Origin: a virus
Length of the DNA stretch: 39,999 nt
IMG/VR virus record: IMGVR_UViG_3300028909_000011
Direction: 5' to 3' (one strand)
In this document: positions 2,923 to 26,361 of the stretch, one piece after another
Position numbering within the stretch: position 1 is the stretch's first letter
Layout: each line of letters opens with the position of its first letter
Notes under the pieces: generated by a model
The model's input: only the letters and a program-made list of their open reading frames with translations
Databases searched by the model: none
Told to the model about the DNA's origin: nothing
Program-made: the position numbers and the translations under genes

Positions 2923-2964
2923 GCCGCTGACGCGCATTGAATTGTGCCAGCGGCATTTTTATTT
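2923..2964 (+). terminator. Leader hairpin plus T-tract (intrinsic-terminator-like) between promoter and first late gene
   Basis: GCCGCTG (2923-2929) pairs with CAGCGGC (2948-2954), followed by ATTTTTATTT. An upstream hairpin GCGAAG (2902-2907) / CTTCGC (2919-2924) overlaps it by 2 nt. Confidence 0.45.
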
Positions 2965-2974
2965 GGATATAATA

Positions 2975-3286
2975 ATGATTACACCATTGCAGGATTACAT
3001 CGTAGTAAAGCCAGTCCAGCGCATGAGGTCTGAAATATTGACCGTCATTACATCAGAGACTGATCAAGGATCATGGGGCGCATATGCTGATGTAATCGCA
3101 GTGGGGCCTGGGCTGCCGAACAAGAAGGGGAAAATTATGCCGCTAGATGCAAAGATTGGCGACCGCGTGATGTATGGCGGTGACCGGCTCGGATGCATCA
3201 ATTTCCCCAAATACGTCGAGGATGGCGTCGAATATCGACTGATACAGGAAGCCGACATCTGTTTTGTGGAGGAATCGAAGTGTTAG
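2975..3286 (+). CDS. GroES-like co-chaperonin (Cpn10 family)
   Basis: 103 aa from ATG 2975. MITPLQDYIVVKP...ADVIAVGPG...IMPLDAKIGDRVMY...EADICFVE parallels E. coli GroES MNIRPLHDRVIVKR...GEVLAVGNG...KPLDVKVGDIVIF...ESDILAIVE. The ATG at 2900 in the ORF track would read through the leader hairpins and adds no homology. Confidence 0.75.
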   Translation: MITPLQDYIVVKPVQRMRSEILTVITSETDQGSWGAYADVIAVGPGLPNKKGKIMPLDAKIGDRVMYGGDRLGCINFPKYVEDGVEYRLIQEADICFVEESKC

Positions 3287-3516
3287 ACATTCTCAGCCTA
3301 GTAAATGGCTGCGTTTCCTCAATAGGAAAGAAAGAAAATATGAATACCCCCGATGAGGCCATGAAAAGCTACCACGATCGCAGAGAACGGGAAGCCTTGG
3401 TCGATATGGCCTTAGACCGCCTGAAAAGCGCAGGTAGCCCTTTTGAGCTTGAGAAGGCCCAAGCAATTGCTGCTCATGTGCAATGGCGCATTGAACGAGC
3501 AGATCGCGGGTTGTAA
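3280..3516 (+). CDS. Hypothetical protein
   Basis: A GTG at 3280 lies 6 nt after GGAGGA (3268-3273) and overlaps the GroES-like stop. An alternative ATG is at 3340. The product is helical and charged. Confidence 0.5.
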   Translation: MLDILSLVNGCVSSIGKKENMNTPDEAMKSYHDRREREALVDMALDRLKSAGSPFELEKAQAIAAHVQWRIERADRGL

Positions 3517-3960
3517 ATGGGACGCCCATCAGATTTCACGCAAGAGATGGCTGATTTGATATGCGAACGCATGGCTGATGGTCAAAGTCTTCGCGCCATT
3601 TGTGTTGATGACGAAATGCCAAGTAGAGCGGCAATATTCCGTTGGCTTGCTGCCAATGAAGCATTTCGTGACCAATACGCCCGCGCATGCGAGATTCGCA
3701 CCGACGAATTATTCGACCAAATGCTGGAAATTGCTGATACACCAAAGGTAGGAACCAAAACTGTCAGCAAAGCCACTGTCCTAGAGATTACCGAGGCCGA
3801 TATGATCGAGCATCGTCGGCTCCAGGTTGAGACGCGCAAATGGGCATTGGCTAAGATGGCACCGAAGAAATATGGCGACAAACTTGATCTGAACCATGGT
3901 GGCCAGCCAAACAACCCGATCACCGGCATACAGATAGAGATCATCAAGGCAAATGGCTGA
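3517..3960 (+). CDS. terS: Terminase small subunit
   Basis: 147 aa. MGRPSDFTQEMADLICERMADGQSLRAICVDDEMPSRAAIFRWLAANEAFRDQYARA is the HTH-type TerS N-terminus common in podophages. It lies immediately upstream of, and overlaps, terL. Confidence 0.8.
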   Translation: MGRPSDFTQEMADLICERMADGQSLRAICVDDEMPSRAAIFRWLAANEAFRDQYARACEIRTDELFDQMLEIADTPKVGTKTVSKATVLEITEADMIEHRRLQVETRKWALAKMAPKKYGDKLDLNHGGQPNNPITGIQIEIIKANG

Positions 3961-5260
3961 GAATATCCTCAAGGCTCAGGTAGCCGAGGTATTCACCCCG
4001 CTACTGTCTCCGAGCCGCTACAAAATGGCAAAGGGTGGCCGTGGATCGGGTAAAAGTCACTTCTTTGCTGGCAATATGATCATGGAGCATTTGCGCGTAA
4101 AGACCGATTCCGTCTGTCTGCGCGAAGTCCAAGAATCCCTGAAATTTAGTTCGAAGAAACTCCTTGAATCAAAGATTGCCGAATATAACGCCGGCTATTA
4201 TTTCGATGTACAGGATTTCGTCATTAAAGACCGTAACGGCGGCATTATCATTTTTCAGGGTATGAAAGATCACACTGCTGAGTCCATTAAATCGCTGGAG
4301 GGATTCCGTATAGCATGGTTCGCCGAGGCCCAATCTGCTAGCAAGCGCAGCCTAGAGCTATTGCGCCCAACAATGCGCACTGGGTCTGAGCTTTGGTTCG
4401 ATTGGAACCCATTCAAAGAAGATGACCCGATTGAAGAGTTGCAGAATCTCCTAATGCTCAGCGAGAAGCCGCCAGTCGTCGTGCATGCCAATTGGAAGGA
4501 TAATCCATGGCTGCCAGATGATTTGCGCCAGGAAATGGCAATTGATGCCAAGGGAGACCCCGATCTATTTGAGCATGTCTGGAATGGTGCATGCCTCAAG
4601 AATACCGAGGGCGATTATTATAAATTCCAATTGGCCCAGGTCCATAAAGAGGGCCGCATCTGCTTTATCCCGCGCCTGGATATCCCGGTAAACACCTTTT
4701 GGGATATTGGTAATAGCGACGGCTGCGCAGTCTGGTTTCACCAGAAAGTGGGCCTCGAAGACCGCTTTATCGGCTATTACGAGGGCCATGGCGAAACTCT
4801 TGCTCATTACTATAAAGAATTACAAGACCGTGGATATGTTTTTAATAAGCATTTCTTCCCACATGATGCCGACCACGAGAAACTCAGCAAGGATAATAAG
4901 TCCGTAAAAATGATGATGAAGGATTTGGGTCTGCAAAACATTGTTGTTGTTCCGCGCATCCTTGATTTGAATACTGGTATTATGCAAACACGCAAGCATT
5001 TCGCATCGGCCTGGTTCGATAGTGATTTGGACGGGAAGAATGGATGTAAGCAAGGGTTGAATCGGCTTACGAATTACCGGAAGCGGTTTAATCAGAAAGA
5101 TCAGCGCTGGATTGATGAGCCGAATAAGGCTAATGGGTGCAGCGAGGGCGCAGACGCATTTAGAATGTGGGCGCAGGCCAAAGAGGGTGGAAATATTACG
5201 ATGGCCGGCAGAACGCGGCCTAAACAGCAGGAAGAAGCATTTTCTGGGTGGATGGGATGA
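3953..5260 (+). CDS. terL: Terminase large subunit (PBSX-type)
   Basis: 435 aa. Walker A GGRGSGKS near the N-terminus. A C-terminal nuclease-like region (WDIGNSD...FFPHDADH). Confidence 0.9.
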   Translation: MAENILKAQVAEVFTPLLSPSRYKMAKGGRGSGKSHFFAGNMIMEHLRVKTDSVCLREVQESLKFSSKKLLESKIAEYNAGYYFDVQDFVIKDRNGGIIIFQGMKDHTAESIKSLEGFRIAWFAEAQSASKRSLELLRPTMRTGSELWFDWNPFKEDDPIEELQNLLMLSEKPPVVVHANWKDNPWLPDDLRQEMAIDAKGDPDLFEHVWNGACLKNTEGDYYKFQLAQVHKEGRICFIPRLDIPVNTFWDIGNSDGCAVWFHQKVGLEDRFIGYYEGHGETLAHYYKELQDRGYVFNKHFFPHDADHEKLSKDNKSVKMMMKDLGLQNIVVVPRILDLNTGIMQTRKHFASAWFDSDLDGKNGCKQGLNRLTNYRKRFNQKDQRWIDEPNKANGCSEGADAFRMWAQAKEGGNITMAGRTRPKQQEEAFSGWMG

Positions 5261-5421
5261 TACCGAAGTGGGCAGAGACGCCAGAGATTCGCAAGCCGCT
5301 ATTCACCGCTGAGCAAATCGCGGAAGTGCGCGCAATTACCCATCCCGAACCGCCGCCAATAGTTGAATCTCCCCAAATTCGCGAAATCATCAAAATCAAG
5401 AGGAAGAAAAATGGCGAGTGA
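5257..5421 (+). CDS. Small hypothetical protein coupled between terL and the portal gene
   Basis: 54 aa, not in the ORF track: MIPKWAETPEIRKPLFTAEQIAEVRAITHPEPPPIVESPQIREIIKIKRKKNGE. ATGA overlap with the terL stop; its stop overlaps the portal ATG at 5411. Confidence 0.4.
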   Translation: MIPKWAETPEIRKPLFTAEQIAEVRAITHPEPPPIVESPQIREIIKIKRKKNGE

Positions 5422-7489
5422 AGTTGATGAGGCAATCGAGTTTATGCGGCTCAGTGTCGATGCGGAGTCGGAGAATCGCGCTCTTGCCCTCGTTGACCTG
5501 CAATTCCGGTATGGCGACCAATGGCCAGCATATGCCAGCCTCAGCCGGGGCCAAGAGCGTCCGCAGTTGACCATCAACGAGATGGATAGCTACATTCGCC
5601 AGATCACCAATTCACAGCGCCAGCAGCGCCCGCGCATCAAAGTGCATCCATGCGATGATTTCGCCGATGTCAAGACCGCTAAGGTACTCACGGGCCTTAT
5701 GCGGCATTTTGAGGTCAATTCGGACGCTGATAATGCCTACGATATCGCATTTGATTTTGCCGCTACCATGGGATGGGGTTATTGGCGCGTGCGCAATGAT
5801 TATGTCCGCGAAGATTCGTTCGATCAGGATATTTTTATTGATTCGGTAGATAACCCATTTTCGGTATATTTCGATCAGGCGGCGCGTCTTCCAGATGGCT
5901 CAGATGCAGAAAAATGCCTCGTTACCGATCTGATGCGCATATCCACCTACAAGACAGAGCATCCAGGCGCTGAGGTGGGCAGTTTCAGCGAAACGGCGTC
6001 TGGCGACTCAGACCCAACTTGGGTCACTAAGGATATGATCCGACTTGCCGAGTTTTTCTTCATTGAGCGTGAGAAGTGCAAGCTAATCATGCTTTCCGAT
6101 GGATCGCCTGTATGGGCAGATCAGATGCCGGCAGGCGCAATTCTGTCCAAGCTCGGCATCACTGTCACCGGTGAGCGTGATAGCTTTAAGCGCATCGTCA
6201 AATGGCGCAAACAGAGTGCCTTTGATATCCTTGAAGAGAAGGTTTTGCCATGGCGCTGGATTCCAGTCGTGCCGGTCTACTGGACTAACACTAAGATCGA
6301 CAACAAGATCCTGCGTCAAGGCATGGTGCGGCCCGGCATGGACCCGCAGCGGATGATTAACTTTTGGCAGACGAGTATCACGGAGTCCATCGCTTTGGCG
6401 CCGAAAGCCAAATGGCTGGGCTATGAGGGCTTCGACGAGGGCCATGAGAACGAATTCAGGAACGCCAATCTATCGTCAAGCCCAGTATTGCGCGCAAAGG
6501 CAACAGGTATTGATGATCAGCAGATTCCATTGCCTACCCGATTGCAGCCAGAGCCTCCACCATCAGGCACGATTGAGGCCGCAATGCAGGCCAATCAAAA
6601 TCTCCAGCGCGTCATGGGCATGTTTGACCCTAAAACGAGCTCAACACAACCTAAATCAGGTGTTGCAATTCAGGGAGAGCAGGGCCAGTCTGAAATGTCA
6701 AACTACCATGGCTATGATAATTTGACTCGCTCGATCAAGCATACCGCGCGCATCATCCTCTCCGGACTGCCAAAGGTGCTGGACGTGGCAACCACGCGCC
6801 GGATCATCGGTGAAGACGGTCGGCCAGAACTAGTCAAGATCAACGATCCGCAGCAAGGAACTGATGATCAGGCTATCAGCAGGGTTTTAAATGATGTACG
6901 CGTCGGAACCTATGACGTCGTGATGGATACCGGCCCCGGCTACGATACCAGGCGCATCCAGGGCGTCGATTCCATGATGCAGCTCATGCAAACCCCGATT
7001 GGCGAGAAGGTCGCAGCCGTGGGCGACGACCTGATCGTGCGTCAGATGGATTTCAACGGGTCGGATGTACTGGCTGACCGCCTGGCCGCTGCGAATTCCA
7101 TGTCGCAGGTTGACGAGCAATCGGAAATCCCGCCACAGGTGCAAATGCAGATCAAGCAGTTGCAGCAGCAATTACAGCAGGCTCAGCAGCAATTGCAGGC
7201 GCAGGAGCAGGTTATCAAATCCCGCTCCGACCTCAAACAAATGGAAGAATCAGCCGAGACGCAGCGCGAGCATATGCGGCTCACGGTCAAGGCGCACGAT
7301 ATCGAGACGCAGGACGCTACTAAGCGCCATGACATCGCCACAGAGACGCAGACGAAGGCGCACGATGCCGCCCTAGGCTATAAGAAGGCCGTGACAGTCG
7401 AGGAAATCAAAGGACAAATAGCTTTGCTACTCGCTCAAATCGGATCTGGCGAAGAGGCCAAAGATAACGCAATCGATTCAGCAATTTAA
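5411..7489 (+). CDS. Portal protein (P22-like, with C-terminal Gln-rich coiled-coil barrel)
   Basis: About 692 aa from ATG 5411 (SD AAGAGGAAG upstream; the ORF track starts at 5363). Position after terL. C-terminal QMQIKQLQQQLQQAQQQLQAQEQ helix, as in P22-type portals. Confidence 0.85.
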   Translation: MASEVDEAIEFMRLSVDAESENRALALVDLQFRYGDQWPAYASLSRGQERPQLTINEMDSYIRQITNSQRQQRPRIKVHPCDDFADVKTAKVLTGLMRHFEVNSDADNAYDIAFDFAATMGWGYWRVRNDYVREDSFDQDIFIDSVDNPFSVYFDQAARLPDGSDAEKCLVTDLMRISTYKTEHPGAEVGSFSETASGDSDPTWVTKDMIRLAEFFFIEREKCKLIMLSDGSPVWADQMPAGAILSKLGITVTGERDSFKRIVKWRKQSAFDILEEKVLPWRWIPVVPVYWTNTKIDNKILRQGMVRPGMDPQRMINFWQTSITESIALAPKAKWLGYEGFDEGHENEFRNANLSSSPVLRAKATGIDDQQIPLPTRLQPEPPPSGTIEAAMQANQNLQRVMGMFDPKTSSTQPKSGVAIQGEQGQSEMSNYHGYDNLTRSIKHTARIILSGLPKVLDVATTRRIIGEDGRPELVKINDPQQGTDDQAISRVLNDVRVGTYDVVMDTGPGYDTRRIQGVDSMMQLMQTPIGEKVAAVGDDLIVRQMDFNGSDVLADRLAAANSMSQVDEQSEIPPQVQMQIKQLQQQLQQAQQQLQAQEQVIKSRSDLKQMEESAETQREHMRLTVKAHDIETQDATKRHDIATETQTKAHDAALGYKKAVTVEEIKGQIALLLAQIGSGEEAKDNAIDSAI

Positions 7490-23209: not shown

Positions 23210-23377
23210 ATGGACCAATTCAAACACATGATGGATGGCGTCTCTCTGGTGGCTGTTTTGACCGGGATATTTAACATGCTTCCGGCCTTTGTCACGGTTA
23301 TCTCAGGCATGCTATCTGCGATCTGGTTCGGGATACGCATTTACGAATACATCAAGACTAGCAAAGCGGGGGAGTGA
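23210..23377 (+). CDS. Holin (putative)
   Basis: 55 aa, not in the ORF track: MDQFKHMMDGVSLVAVLTGIFNMLPAFVTVISGMLSAIWFGIRIYEYIKTSKAGE. Hydrophobic core and charged C-terminus. TGATG coupling to the endolysin gene. Confidence 0.6.
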   Translation: MDQFKHMMDGVSLVAVLTGIFNMLPAFVTVISGMLSAIWFGIRIYEYIKTSKAGE

Positions 23378-23871
23378 TGCCACAAATCAACGTAACTCAA
23401 GCGGGCGGTCAGAACGTCTGCGCATTCCTCGATATGATCGCCAATTCAGAGGGAACTTCGCATGATCCTGCAACATTGGACGATGGCTATGATGTGCTGG
23501 TGACGGGGATTAATGGCCCGGCACGATTCGATAGCTACGTTTCGCATCCGGATGTTCTAGTGCAGGTAAATCATAGCGGGCTGGAATCGACAGCGGCGGG
23601 CCGGTATCAGCTTCTTTATCGGTATTGGGTGGCATATCAATCATCTCTGAAACTTCCAGATTTCAGCCCTGTATCTCAAGACCTGATCGCCATCCAGCAA
23701 ATCCGCGAACGAGGCGCTCTGCCATATATCGCATCTGGAAACTTCGCGCATGCCGTCCAGCTTTGTTCAAATATTTGGGCCTCATTGCCTGGCAATGGGT
23801 ATGGGCAGCATCAGAACACCGTAGCATTGCTTCAAGCGGATTATGTCGCCGCCGGCGGCACCGTAGCTTAA
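23377..23871 (+). CDS. Endolysin, lambda R-like lytic transglycosylase
   Basis: 164 aa. AFLDMIANSEGT...GYDVLVTG...SHP...STAAGRYQLLYRYWVAYQSSLKLPDFSPVSQDLIAIQQIRERGALPYI...CSNIWASLPGNGYGQ is nearly collinear with lambda R (AFLDMLAWSEGT...GAGRYQLLSRWWDAY...CSNIWASLPGAGYGQ). Confidence 0.9.
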   Translation: MPQINVTQAGGQNVCAFLDMIANSEGTSHDPATLDDGYDVLVTGINGPARFDSYVSHPDVLVQVNHSGLESTAAGRYQLLYRYWVAYQSSLKLPDFSPVSQDLIAIQQIRERGALPYIASGNFAHAVQLCSNIWASLPGNGYGQHQNTVALLQADYVAAGGTVA

Positions 23872-23889: not shown

Positions 23890-24207
23890 ATGGCACGTAC
23901 CGTAATCGTAAAAGTACCAATGACCGACAGCGATAAAACTTTCGCGGCCGGAACCGAAACAACTGGCCTGCAAGTTACCCTGATGCGCGCCGACGTTCAG
24001 CTTGCGCAGCAGAACATCGCCCCTGATTCCAACGGCGACATGATCGCAACCTTTGATAACATCGAGGCCGGGATCGTCGTCGCGCTGGCGCAGTCGCTGG
24101 GACCGAATGGACCGCTGGGAGACGTCATGACGTCGGCGCAGTACACCGTTGATCCTGATCCGGTATCGATCAAGATTCCGCTGTCCATCGATCTGACGGT
24201 GTCGTAA
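23890..24207 (+). CDS. Hypothetical protein inside the lysis cassette
   Basis: 105 aa. SD AAGGAA. Beta-rich, with no TM segment and no recognisable motif. Confidence 0.55.
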   Translation: MARTVIVKVPMTDSDKTFAAGTETTGLQVTLMRADVQLAQQNIAPDSNGDMIATFDNIEAGIVVALAQSLGPNGPLGDVMTSAQYTVDPDPVSIKIPLSIDLTVS

Positions 24208-24298: not shown

Positions 24299-24532
24299 AT
24301 GAATATCAAATACACTACTCTCATCATCATCGGCGTAATTGGGTATCTGGTCTGGGCTGCCATGGCAATCCTCGATCCCTCTCTGCGCCATGACTTTCTG
24401 GCTTTTAATATCATGATGGCGTCCGGGACAATAGGGGTCGTGGTGCGTGATATGAAATCGGGGGATGATCCAAAACCCCCTCCATCGCCGCCTGTTGCGG
24501 CCCCCACTGTAATTGTGAAGGAACTCCCATGA
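24299..24532 (+). CDS. Membrane protein (i-spanin-like or second holin/antiholin)
   Basis: 77 aa from ATG 24299. Two hydrophobic segments followed by a Pro-rich tail (DDPKPPPSPPVAAP). ATGA overlap with the lipoprotein gene. Confidence 0.45.
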   Translation: MNIKYTTLIIIGVIGYLVWAAMAILDPSLRHDFLAFNIMMASGTIGVVVRDMKSGDDPKPPPSPPVAAPTVIVKELP

Positions 24533-24936
24533 AAATCGTTATTGCCTTATTCGCCATCCTGCTTGCCGGTTGCGCTGGCGCGCCAATCCAACCGCTTACC
24601 CCTGCGCAGATCGTCGCGCAGATCAATACGCAAGTCTGTCCATCGGTGAAACTGATCCTGGCCGACCTGCAAACGCCGGGCCTCGTCACCGATCCCGCAT
24701 TGCTTGCCAAACTTCCGACGGTCCAGAACGACGTTACAGCCGTTTGTGCTGATGGCGCTACCCTGAATGCGGCGAGCCTGCAAACGCTTGCCACAAGCGC
24801 GCTGCCTATCGTCCTTGACGTGGTTAAGGCTGTACCGGGTCCGCAGCAAGACGCGGCGATTGCTGGAATTACCGCAGCGCAGATCCTGCTGCCGATCCTG
24901 ATTGCGCAAGTGCAAGCGCTGCCGGCCGTAAAATGA
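24529..24936 (+). CDS. Lipoprotein (o-spanin-like)
   Basis: 135 aa. The lipobox in MKIVIALFAILLAGC is a signal peptidase II motif. Position is downstream of the endolysin gene. Confidence 0.55.
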   Translation: MKIVIALFAILLAGCAGAPIQPLTPAQIVAQINTQVCPSVKLILADLQTPGLVTDPALLAKLPTVQNDVTAVCADGATLNAASLQTLATSALPIVLDVVKAVPGPQQDAAIAGITAAQILLPILIAQVQALPAVK

Positions 24937-25553
24937 TTACCCCGCTCCTGTTAGCGCAGTTCAGTAACGCCATCTATTCGCAGTCCACAGGATGGGACGA
25001 CTATTGGACGCTGGATGATGTCGTGGTGGCACGCAAGCGCGTTGACGATACTGATGTGATCGTGCATCGCGGCTCGGCAGTCGGCTCGGATTGGGTGAAA
25101 AACTTTACCGCTTATCCGAAGTGGCATTCTCAGCTCGGCTATTGCCATGCCGGGTTCCTGTCTGGCATGGATGAGGTATTTAGTGAAGTTCGCGTGGCTG
25201 TCGGCGCAAATGTCGCCATTACCGGTCACAGCTTAGGCGGGGCGCGTGCGCGGATATTGGCGGGACTATTCGCTTACAACAAAATCCCGGTTGATCTGCT
25301 GACCGTATTCGGCGCACCGAAGCCGGGATTTATCAACCTGGCGCGAATCATTCAGAAATCAGGCATCGTGCATACCTCATTTCGCAACAGAAATGACGTC
25401 GTTCCTACGCTGGCGCTGTCAATCGCCCCATTCCTTGAGTTCGTGCATACAGAAGATTGGCAGGTATTGAACGCCGCCCCGGCATCCGATAACTTGGAGC
25501 CGTTGCGGGACCACTCGATTGATTTGTATATCAAGGCATTGTCCGTCGCCTAA
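24933..25553 (+). CDS. Class 3 lipase / alpha-beta hydrolase
   Basis: 206 aa. Nucleophile elbow ITGHSLGGARA, Asp candidate NRNDVVPTL, His candidate RDHSIDLY. ATGA-coupled to the lipoprotein gene. Confidence 0.75.
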   Translation: MITPLLLAQFSNAIYSQSTGWDDYWTLDDVVVARKRVDDTDVIVHRGSAVGSDWVKNFTAYPKWHSQLGYCHAGFLSGMDEVFSEVRVAVGANVAITGHSLGGARARILAGLFAYNKIPVDLLTVFGAPKPGFINLARIIQKSGIVHTSFRNRNDVVPTLALSIAPFLEFVHTEDWQVLNAAPASDNLEPLRDHSIDLYIKALSVA

Positions 25554-26361
25554 CGGCATCTTGACGAGCCTTTTGAGCAATGGACATATTTTTCTTTGCT
25601 TCTGGTGATCTGGTCTTACCTCTATTTGTTTCAGCTATTTTTTTCCTTGTATCTTCCGATACCGGCCTCCCGGTTAATGCCGCGACGATTTTAGCTTTCG
25701 TCTCATCTGTCACTATCCTTGCTCTGCCAATAACAGATAGCTTTTCACGCTGCTCTTGCGACATGGATCGACCGGTTAATGCTGCAGTGATTTTTGACTG
25801 GTGATCAAATGATTTAACTCTTCCTTTATGGAATAGCGAAACCTTTTCTTTGTGCTCATTAGATAATTTTCTCCCGGTAGTTGCGGCCGATATTTTTTCT
25901 CTTTGCTCTGGCGTTCTGATTGATCCGGTATTTGCTATAGAAATTTTTTTACGAGATTCTTCGCCAAGAGTATGACCTCTACTTTTCTCCCCTATAAGCC
26001 TCCGAGTTTCTGCGCTTGGGGACGTCCCCTTTCTTCCTTTTAGTGCTTGCGATATCTTCTTTCTAACTTCGGGCATGAGTGACGGGGATATGTCTCCACC
26101 AGTAGTCATGTTATAGCCTCCGGGAGCCAGCGACCCAGCCTCAGCTATGAATCTAATCTCCTCGTCATGCAAAATATCATTACCGACCTCTGCAAGAGTT
26201 GATACGGATGGATCTCCATATTTTCTCCACGCATGGTAGATCGCTTGATTTTGGTATTTTGATGAGGATTTATGCTCGGCGTAGCGAGAATCTACGGTTT
26301 TTGTAGTAAGACCAACATATTTTTTGCCATTTGAAAACTCAAGACAATAGATAAAGCCCAT
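25531..26361 (-). CDS. GIY-YIG homing endonuclease with about 10 tandem NUMOD3-like repeats
   Basis: 276 aa. GFIYCLEFSNGKKYVGLT...RYAEHK...YNMTTGG is a GIY-YIG core. Ten roughly 17-aa units of the form x-E-x-R-x-K-I-S-x-A-x-x-G-R follow. The 3' end overlaps the lipase 3' end by 23 bp. Confidence 0.85.
   Translation of the reverse strand: MGFIYCLEFSNGKKYVGLTTKTVDSRYAEHKSSSKYQNQAIYHAWRKYGDPSVSTLAEVGNDILHDEEIRFIAEAGSLAPGGYNMTTGGDISPSLMPEVRKKISQALKGRKGTSPSAETRRLIGEKSRGHTLGEESRKKISIANTGSIRTPEQREKISAATTGRKLSNEHKEKVSLFHKGRVKSFDHQSKITAALTGRSMSQEQREKLSVIGRARIVTDETKAKIVAALTGRPVSEDTRKKIAETNRGKTRSPEAKKNMSIAQKARQDAVRRRTMP

Follow-up and report, generated by a model that had tools for sequence, protein, structure and literature searches.

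In the accepted model of phage lysis in Gram-negative bacteria, the cell is opened by a holin, an endolysin and a spanin, the last of which acts by membrane fusion. To our knowledge, cationic disruptin peptides are the only alternative to spanins that has been described, and enzymatic attack on lipids during lysis is known only for phages of the mycolata, which use LysB. LysB is proposed to act on the outer lipid layer at the end of lysis (PMC5707550). Here we describe a gene for a 206-aa class-3 lipase (24933-25553, plus strand) that is the terminal gene of the late/lysis operon in the IMG/VR virus record IMGVR_UViG_3300028909_000011, a stretch of 39,999 nucleotides that we refer to as the window. 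An earlier note, made from the letters of the window alone, had proposed that this lipase provides an enzymatic outer-membrane step that could replace or assist spanins. With moderate confidence we favor a version of this idea, namely that the protein is a late, holin-dependent accessory lysis lipase whose predicted lipid hydrolysis helps to open the outer membrane beside a membrane-protein/lipoprotein pair. A literature search gave no description of lipases in the lysis cassettes of Gram-negative phages.

Judged by family profiles and a predicted structure, the gene is real and intact and encodes a bona fide class-3 lipase. The protein matches Pfam Lipase_3 (PF01764) with 51.3 bits (cut-off 22, E=1.5e-13) over profile positions 1-136 of 140, and PHROG 21992 esterase/lipase with E=2e-20. 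The three catalytic-triad motifs that the earlier note had read in the translation are confirmed, as Ser100 (GHSLGG), Asp155 (NRNDVVP) and His194 (RDH) are invariant and in canonical order in an alignment of 37 homologs with 39-66% identity. An AlphaFold2 model built on the homolog alignment (predicted local distance difference test, pLDDT, 92.1; predicted TM score 0.91) has the lipase fold: Foldseek aligns it with 3tgl, 4tgl, 1uwc and 5ap9 at E about 1e-10 to 1e-8 and query TM scores of 0.69-0.71, and the best matches by fold and profile are fungal class-3 lipases, an Aspergillus feruloyl esterase and plant phospholipase A1. At the lid position the alignment and the model place a short helix (residues 51-58) with an invariant D53 and a near-invariant W54. 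The protein is about 23 kDa, has a single cysteine and carries no signal peptide.

By sequence, the lipase is one of many compact lipases that form a clade of considerable size: when 1.84 billion cluster representatives were searched by profile, 261 clusters (at 50% identity) reached E<=1e-30, almost all of them single-domain proteins of about 200-220 aa. Among phage records only cyanophage lipases matched, at about 30% identity; Prochlorococcus phages P-SSM2 and P-SSM5 are among these matches, and the Lipase_3 protein of P-SSM2 is 31% identical to the window enzyme.

Lipase contexts were collected from gene-called assemblies, IMG/VR and GTDB genomes and JGI metagenomes, and were reduced to 51 clusters at 90% lipase identity; in GC-rich loci, genes were found by strand-restricted scans and six-frame phmmer searches. 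Endolysins were counted in those 33 non-redundant clusters whose upstream flank was 2.5 kb or longer. A same-strand endolysin lies near the lipase in at least 22 of these, either 0.28-2.6 kb upstream or, in locus L029, directly downstream, so that the lipase there is immediately 5' of the endolysin gene; the count is a lower bound because the seed set was small. A random gene of a 40-60 kb phage would be expected equally near an endolysin in about 13% of cases, and the placement of the lipase near endolysins is thus beyond chance. In the other 11 loci a Pfam scan, the tallies of which are pooled and not per locus, gave four hits to families of wall-hydrolase type (an Rv2525c-like glycoside hydrolase, peptidase M15_3, M15_4/VanY and Amidase_2) together with one holin family. 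The neighboring endolysins are of lambda-R, T4-lysozyme, GH19, glucosaminidase, GH108, PHROG 315 and PHROG 873 type. On the lipase tree, which is poorly resolved, endolysin family changes 13 times compared with 13.8 times for shuffled labels; as the families do not cluster, adjacency has been kept through module shuffling and not by descent of one intact ancestral cassette. In a Mu-like Rhodocyclaceae prophage the lipase stands between the endolysin and the gp27/portal block, and the cassette is internal to the genome. The earlier note had suggested a search for Lipase_3 genes beside endolysins in relatives, and had allowed that the gene might turn out to be an unrelated moron of variable position. 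For most of the family the conserved linkage to lysis cassettes removes this objection.

The arrangement is also found in cultured phages. Ralstonia phages Raharianne, Hyacinthe and Albius encode, in this order, an endolysin, an HNH endonuclease, a 63-aa membrane protein, a lipoprotein and a Lipase_3 protein. Their lipoprotein (151 aa) is 44% identical to that of the window, and their lipase (192 aa, E=1.2e-11, 24% identity) has the motifs GHSEGA, NGADVVP and RDH. The lipase gene shows the same 4-nt overlap with the lipoprotein gene and is followed by a strand switch 3'. The paper describing Raharianne makes no mention of the lipase.

A further line of evidence comes from loci in which another enzyme occupies the place of the lipase. 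The closest homologs of the window lipoprotein, with 63-65% identity, are found in two prophages of Glaciimonas sp. PCH181, where the gene order is endolysin (GH108 or glucosaminidase), 85-aa membrane protein, lipoprotein and DUF1353. The DUF1353 gene (E=2.7e-26) overlaps the lipoprotein stop codon and stands in the lipase slot. In a Herbaspirillum contig with a further homolog of the lipoprotein, the slot is taken by a divergent 259-aa hydrolase with GHSLGG and DDHSIDL motifs that Pfam does not recognize. For TtaP, the founding member of DUF1353, phospholipase A2 activity has been measured; the protein has a His/Asp dyad and no secretion signal. Its gene lies in the typhoid-toxin islet, a group of five genes to which the gene for the phage-type muramidase TtsA also belongs, and the authors of the TtaP study suspect a perturbation of the outer membrane (PMC11525133). 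DUF1353 furthermore closes the lysis cassette of Salmonella/Klebsiella phage IME207 and that of the E. coli BASEL phage Bas80, in both cases directly behind a canonical Rz gene, which in IME207 contains an embedded Rz1. In Caulobacter phage DMCA it lies 3' of an M15 peptidase, and in Pseudomonas phage Cygsa01 it overlaps the endolysin start. DUF1353 genes at cassette ends have the coordinates 2956-3297 in locus L064 (IME207 gp22), 2456-2797 in L071 (Bas80_0020) and 2414-2857 in L066. Two unrelated lipid acyl-hydrolases thus alternate behind one lipoprotein family, which suggests that lipid hydrolysis itself is the property under selection. This interchange, as read from the sequences, would be hard to explain by random insertion of cargo.

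DUF1353 also occurs outside such cassettes. It was found in 21 of 201 Burkholderiales genomes, where the copies other than those of Glaciimonas are chromosomal and many have N-terminal signal-like sequences, and the domain as a whole can therefore not be specific to lysis. In RefSeq and GenBank the phage DUF1353 proteins at the ends of lysis cassettes are labeled "tail assembly chaperone" or "tail fiber assembly protein". Given the phospholipase A2 activity of TtaP and the position in the cassette, this label is probably wrong.

For the lipase of the window we infer timing, compartment, substrate and effect on lysis from these features. The enzyme would be made late, from the final gene of the lysis operon and coupled in translation to the gene before it. 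As it has no export signal, it would remain cytoplasmic until the inner membrane is breached by the holin; it would then enter the periplasm along with the signal-less endolysin and gain access to both membranes from the periplasmic side. In this compartment it may hydrolyze ester-linked acyl chains of envelope lipids, the likeliest targets being phospholipids in the inner leaflet of the outer membrane and in the damaged inner membrane; acyl groups of lipoproteins or of lipid A are other possible targets. The weakened outer membrane would make lysis faster or allow it to be completed. Most likely, the lipase would work alongside the membrane-protein/lipoprotein pair that occupies the spanin position, and not in its place. 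Tle lipases, a group of type VI secretion system (T6SS) effectors, are as far as is known toxic only from the periplasmic side. The Tle2 effectors contain PF01764 domains, and class-3 lipases are hence already known to be deployed against Gram-negative bacteria (PMC9846239).

Several observations weigh against this proposal. In an abundant SU10-like group (L008/L022, 57 contigs) structural genes surround the lipase and no endolysin was detected, and in four other loci (L007, L021, L031, L033) an endolysin was looked for and not found. Of the 25 loci examined first, 9 have no lipoprotein within 2.6 kb of the lipase. Cargo genes, too, classically settle at the end of late operons, and in Herbaspirillum an O-antigen acyltransferase gene lies 3' of the lipase. 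A lipase held in the cytoplasm could attack the inner membrane before the holin is triggered. Finally, the assays published for TtaP revealed no phenotype in secretion or in the envelope (PMC11525133).

The two genes immediately upstream of the lipase raise the question of spanins. The 77-aa inner-membrane protein (24299-24532, plus strand; called as 77-78 aa in independent assemblies) has two moderately hydrophobic segments, the first a transmembrane (TM) segment and the second weaker, followed by a Pro-rich tail of about 25 aa and no coiled coil. It has no match among phage records. Short membrane proteins like it precede the lipoprotein in L004, L024, L027, L037 and in Raharianne (gp56), and the recurring form, 50-105 aa long, combines one strong hydrophobic segment, often joined by a second, weak one, with a tail rich in Pro and Ala. 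We regard the 77-aa protein as a candidate for a short i-spanin-like or holin-like partner. A partner of Rz size with a coiled coil was found in none of the examined loci of this module, and the window holds no canonical Rz-like i-spanin with an N-terminal TM segment and a long coiled coil.

The 135-aa outer-membrane-type lipoprotein (24529-24936, plus strand) has the lipobox LLAG|C without Asp at position +2. In a six-frame scan of the window it was the only credible lipobox ORF, so that there is neither an embedded Rz1 nor a second candidate. The description of the candidate spanins as atypical in the earlier note thus holds. C15 and C73 are invariant across the lipoprotein family, and C37 is so in the seven closest sequences. 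An AlphaFold2 model (pLDDT 79.8) is all-alpha with four helices and has no meaningful match in the PDB (best E=0.38). Residues 109-125 are hydrophobic (Kyte-Doolittle 2.16) and the C-terminal residue is Lys; this segment is modeled as the fourth helix of the bundle, and it is charged or absent in L012, L024 and L013. By position, lipobox and conserved periplasmic cysteines the protein looks like an o-spanin. With Rz/Rz1 spanins it shares these features as well as the ATGA overlap with the gene of its membrane partner, but the partner itself differs in being only 77 aa long and without a coiled coil. The length of the lipoprotein and its hydrophobic C-terminal helix are reminiscent of T1 gp11, but u-spanins of that type are beta-rich and free of cysteines. 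Known u-spanins never have periplasmic cysteines (PMC6139136). The conserved cysteines, the all-alpha model and the lack of conservation of the C-terminal helix as a TM segment led us to reject the u-spanin reading for the most part.

Pairing of lipoprotein and lipase is frequent but not obligatory. By inspection, 13 of 25 loci have a lipoprotein stop codon that overlaps or directly adjoins the start of the lipase, and three more have the lipoprotein gene within 0.5 kb; in an automated census of 46 clusters it was adjacent to the lipase in 18 and within 600 nt in 26. Several lipoprotein families precede the lipase. The type found in the window, with the motif PAQIxAQxNxQVCP and two conserved cysteines, has homologs in L004, L012, L013, L024, L026, L027 and L034; a second type has the motif ACGTPxS...LCL, and further types are unrelated. 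When loci were searched by lipoprotein, a narrow alignment gave two loci only and a broad one was too divergent. In L015 (5354-5998) and L019 (5405-5998) the membrane protein and the lipoprotein share one reading frame with the lipobox in mid-ORF, which is either a genuine fusion or a case of an internal non-ATG start.

The window is the nearly complete genome of a short-tailed phage of about 40 kb. Among its products are a terminase, a portal, a scaffold, the major head protein and a head-closure protein, as well as an ejection protein of 830 aa that contains a lytic domain and a tail fibre or spike of 583 aa. In metagenomes, circularly permuted versions of this genome are found on at least 24 contigs (20-50 kb), and a megablast search with the cassette against 50,697 phage records gave no match and hence no close relative. 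Relatives of the lipase and the lipoprotein come from Rhodocyclaceae, Curvibacter, Glaciimonas, Herbaspirillum and Ralstonia, and the host is probably a member of the Burkholderiales.

The cassette order described in the earlier note, with holin, endolysin, 105-aa protein, two-segment membrane protein, lipoprotein and lipase, is found as given there. The first gene (23210-23377, plus strand) encodes 55 aa with a hydrophobic core and a charged C-terminal tail, and its stop overlaps the endolysin start. It has no Pfam, PHROG, NCBIfam or PADLOC match; the hydrophobic ORF is present as claimed, and we call it a candidate holin from its size, hydrophobicity and position. The endolysin (23374-23871, plus strand, 165 aa) is of the lambda R type of lytic transglycosylase, in agreement with the earlier call (PHROG 90, E=4.4e-52; phage lambda lysozyme 1AM7/3D3D, E=5.6e-41). 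It has neither a signal nor a signal-anchor-release (SAR) segment, which implies a holin that makes large holes. Next follows a 105-aa soluble protein (23890-24207, plus strand) without a family match in Pfam or PHROG. Proteins of about 100 aa with an MxRTVI... start are found directly 3' of three different endolysin families, and look-alikes, judged by eye and not by formal alignment, are encoded at 5095-5424 in L001 and at 5007-5297 in L019. It is possible that the 105-aa protein is a further component of the lysis cassette. ATGA stop/start overlaps are present at both of the last junctions, between the 77-aa protein and the lipoprotein and between the lipoprotein and the lipase, the latter as had been noted before. 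A crude promoter scan found no promoter-like site in the lysis block or just 5' of the lipase, the counts being at chance level. The strand switches 3' of the lipase, where a convergent gene for a 276-aa GIY-YIG/NUMOD3 homing-endonuclease-like protein (25531-26361, minus strand) overlaps the last 23 bases of the lipase gene and forms the boundary of the late and early blocks. A defense-system reading of the five small proteins was rejected, as PADLOC gave no match for any of them.

One alternative is that the lipase is cargo that is freed at lysis and has no part in breaking the cell, at an operon end that tolerates insertions. As cargo it might digest membrane debris and vesicles that trap progeny, alter neighboring cells or benefit a lysogen. 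The terminal position at a strand switch with the GIY-YIG gene overlapping its 3' end would fit such a role, as would the mobile HNH endonucleases inside related cassettes, the cargo gene at the same boundary in Herbaspirillum, the one abundant clade with the lipase among structural genes and the absence of an envelope phenotype in the TtaP study. Nevertheless, the linkage to lysis genes holds where the cassette is internal to the genome and persists across six or more unrelated endolysin families; the lipase is translationally coupled with no sign of a promoter of its own, it lacks a signal peptide for export from a living lysogen, and a second, non-homologous lipid hydrolase alternates with it behind one lipoprotein family. 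We give a pure cargo role a low but by no means negligible probability. We consider it improbable that the lipase fully replaces spanins, with the 77-aa protein and the lipoprotein-lipase pair forming the sole device for disrupting the outer membrane, the lipoprotein docking or activating the lipase at the inner face of that membrane and hydrolysis alone breaking it. The lack of a canonical i-spanin and of an embedded Rz1, the single lipobox ORF, the small size of the membrane proteins in every locus examined and the frequent overlap or abutment of the lipoprotein and lipase genes would all agree with replacement. Moreover, about 13% of phages of Gram-negative bacteria have no recognizable spanin, and P-SSM2, which carries a Lipase_3 gene, is on that list (PMC6139136). 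However, the DUF1353 phospholipase follows canonical Rz in IME207 and Bas80, and because it coexists there with Rz/Rz1, assistance is likelier than replacement. Several unrelated lipoprotein families precede the lipase, as would be expected of a plain o-spanin, which is normally the last gene of the cassette. The pairing of one lipoprotein family with either Lipase_3 or DUF1353 argues against a docking partner specific to the lipase, and many lipase loci have no lipoprotein at all. Of the two options in the earlier note, the slot swap with DUF1353 and the coexistence with Rz/Rz1 thus favor assistance over replacement.

The same lipoprotein data bear on a third explanation, according to which the lipoprotein and the lipase form an immunity (or activator) and effector pair like Tli and Tle, with the periplasmic lipoprotein restraining or priming the lipase. 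In its favor, the Tle2 effectors belong to the class-3 lipases and the immunity proteins of the Tli group to the lipoproteins, with the Tli of E. cloacae in addition activating its Tle; the two genes of the window are tightly coupled, and the lipoprotein is a helical bundle without a known fold match. But in Glaciimonas this lipoprotein family is coupled instead to DUF1353, which is unrelated to the lipase, and lipoprotein type does not track the lipase tree (10 changes compared with 11.4 for shuffled labels, not significant), which together make a Tli-like role unlikely. The only NCBIfam match to T6SS immunity proteins is below the cut-off (19 against 43 bits) and covers just the signal peptide, and a phage late operon offers no T6SS context. 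We give this explanation very little weight.

The cassettes of the relatives hold further genes that deserve mention. HNH-type endonucleases lie in or beside the cassette near the endolysin in L072 (2117-2686; Raharianne gp55, annotated as HNH), L035 (4107-4676) and L036 (3475-3894). The L036 protein matches HNH_2 (E=3e-4), the L035 protein is HNH-like by eye only, and L020, L024 and L027 have proteins that are similar by eye. Mobile endonucleases seem to insert preferentially into the lysis cassettes found in this group. Genes for GDSL-type esterases/lipases lie within 1-2 kb of lysis genes in L065 (283-1587; Cygsa01) and L072 (89-895; Raharianne). In Curvibacter prophage L012 a Cys-rich DUF6527 protein (5082-5477, E=3.9e-13) is encoded directly 3' of the endolysin, and in L027 a look-alike, again judged by eye, lies 3' of the endolysin at 3390-3716. 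The gene 3' of the lipase in the Herbaspirillum locus (L037, 6395-8383) combines Acyl_transf_3 and SGNH domains, which we take to be the typical architecture of an O-antigen acetylase; its presence indicates that this operon end accepts ordinary cargo genes.

If our favored reading of an accessory lysis lipase is correct, phages of proteobacteria would have an enzymatic route, or booster, for the breakdown of the outer membrane, which would help to explain part of the approximately 13% of phages without a detectable spanin. More tentatively, lipid hydrolysis could be a widespread and so far unrecognized component of lysis in phages of Gram-negative bacteria, a generalization that we regard as possible but would not yet rely on. 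The terminal slot behind the spanin or lipoprotein would then interchangeably hold holin-released, non-homologous acyl hydrolases (class-3 lipase or DUF1353 phospholipase A2), and the TtsA-TtaP pair of the typhoid-toxin islet would be the domesticated remnant of such a cassette. This would give a rationale for a phospholipase beside the TtsA muramidase, correct the common mis-annotation of DUF1353 as a tail assembly chaperone and offer endolysin-based antibacterials a partner in small lipases that act from the periplasmic side. What is new here is the slot interchange with DUF1353/phospholipase A2, the occurrence of such hydrolases beside canonical spanins, the link to TtsA/TtaP and the naming of cultured phages in which the idea is directly testable.

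Compared with described enzymes, the phage lipase is nearest in structure to the fungal class-3 lipases of Rhizomucor miehei and Thermomyces lanuginosus and to plant DAD1-type phospholipase A1 (E=2e-17 by profile, TM 0.62-0.71 by fold). It has the nucleophile elbow in common with them, and its triad residues come in the same order, but it is about 60 residues shorter and lacks a secretion signal, a propeptide and disulfides. DUF1353/TtaP takes the same terminal slot in lysis cassettes, including behind a lipoprotein of the window type, and is likewise signal-less, whereas its fold and chemistry are unrelated (a His/Asp dyad, group XIV phospholipase A2-like, about 113-147 aa). The Tle2 effectors of the T6SS (V. 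cholerae TseL, P. aeruginosa Tle2) are defined by PF01764/cd00519 and share PF01764 and the Ser-Asp-His triad with the window lipase, and partner immunity proteins in the Tle families are lipoproteins. However, Tle2 proteins are much larger and multi-domain, with the lipase domain at residues 288-494 in the PAK protein, and they are linked to vgrG and the T6SS and delivered between cells, whereas the phage enzyme is a bare 206-aa domain that is presumably released by the holin.

The comparison with LysB, which the earlier note had drawn, stands in part. LysB and related actinophage esterases are absent from the lipase profile search at E<=1, and LysB is absent from the Foldseek matches in the PDB; actinophage esterases in BFVD are reached by fold only at E about 4e-3 to 2e-2 and TM 0.3-0.39. 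There is thus no homology beyond the alpha/beta-hydrolase superfamily and no sequence or fold relationship that would make the window lipase a member of the LysB family. The envelopes differ as well, since the hosts of LysB phages have a mycolate layer and the host of the window phage is Gram-negative with an outer membrane of phospholipid and lipopolysaccharide, and coupling to a lipoprotein gene is a feature of the window lipase that LysB does not share. What stands is the arrangement: the LysB enzymes of mycobacteriophages Ms6 and D29, which are mycolyl-arabinogalactan esterases, are likewise signal-less serine esterases encoded in the lysis cassette after the endolysin, and by this analogy LysB is the closest functional counterpart of the window lipase.

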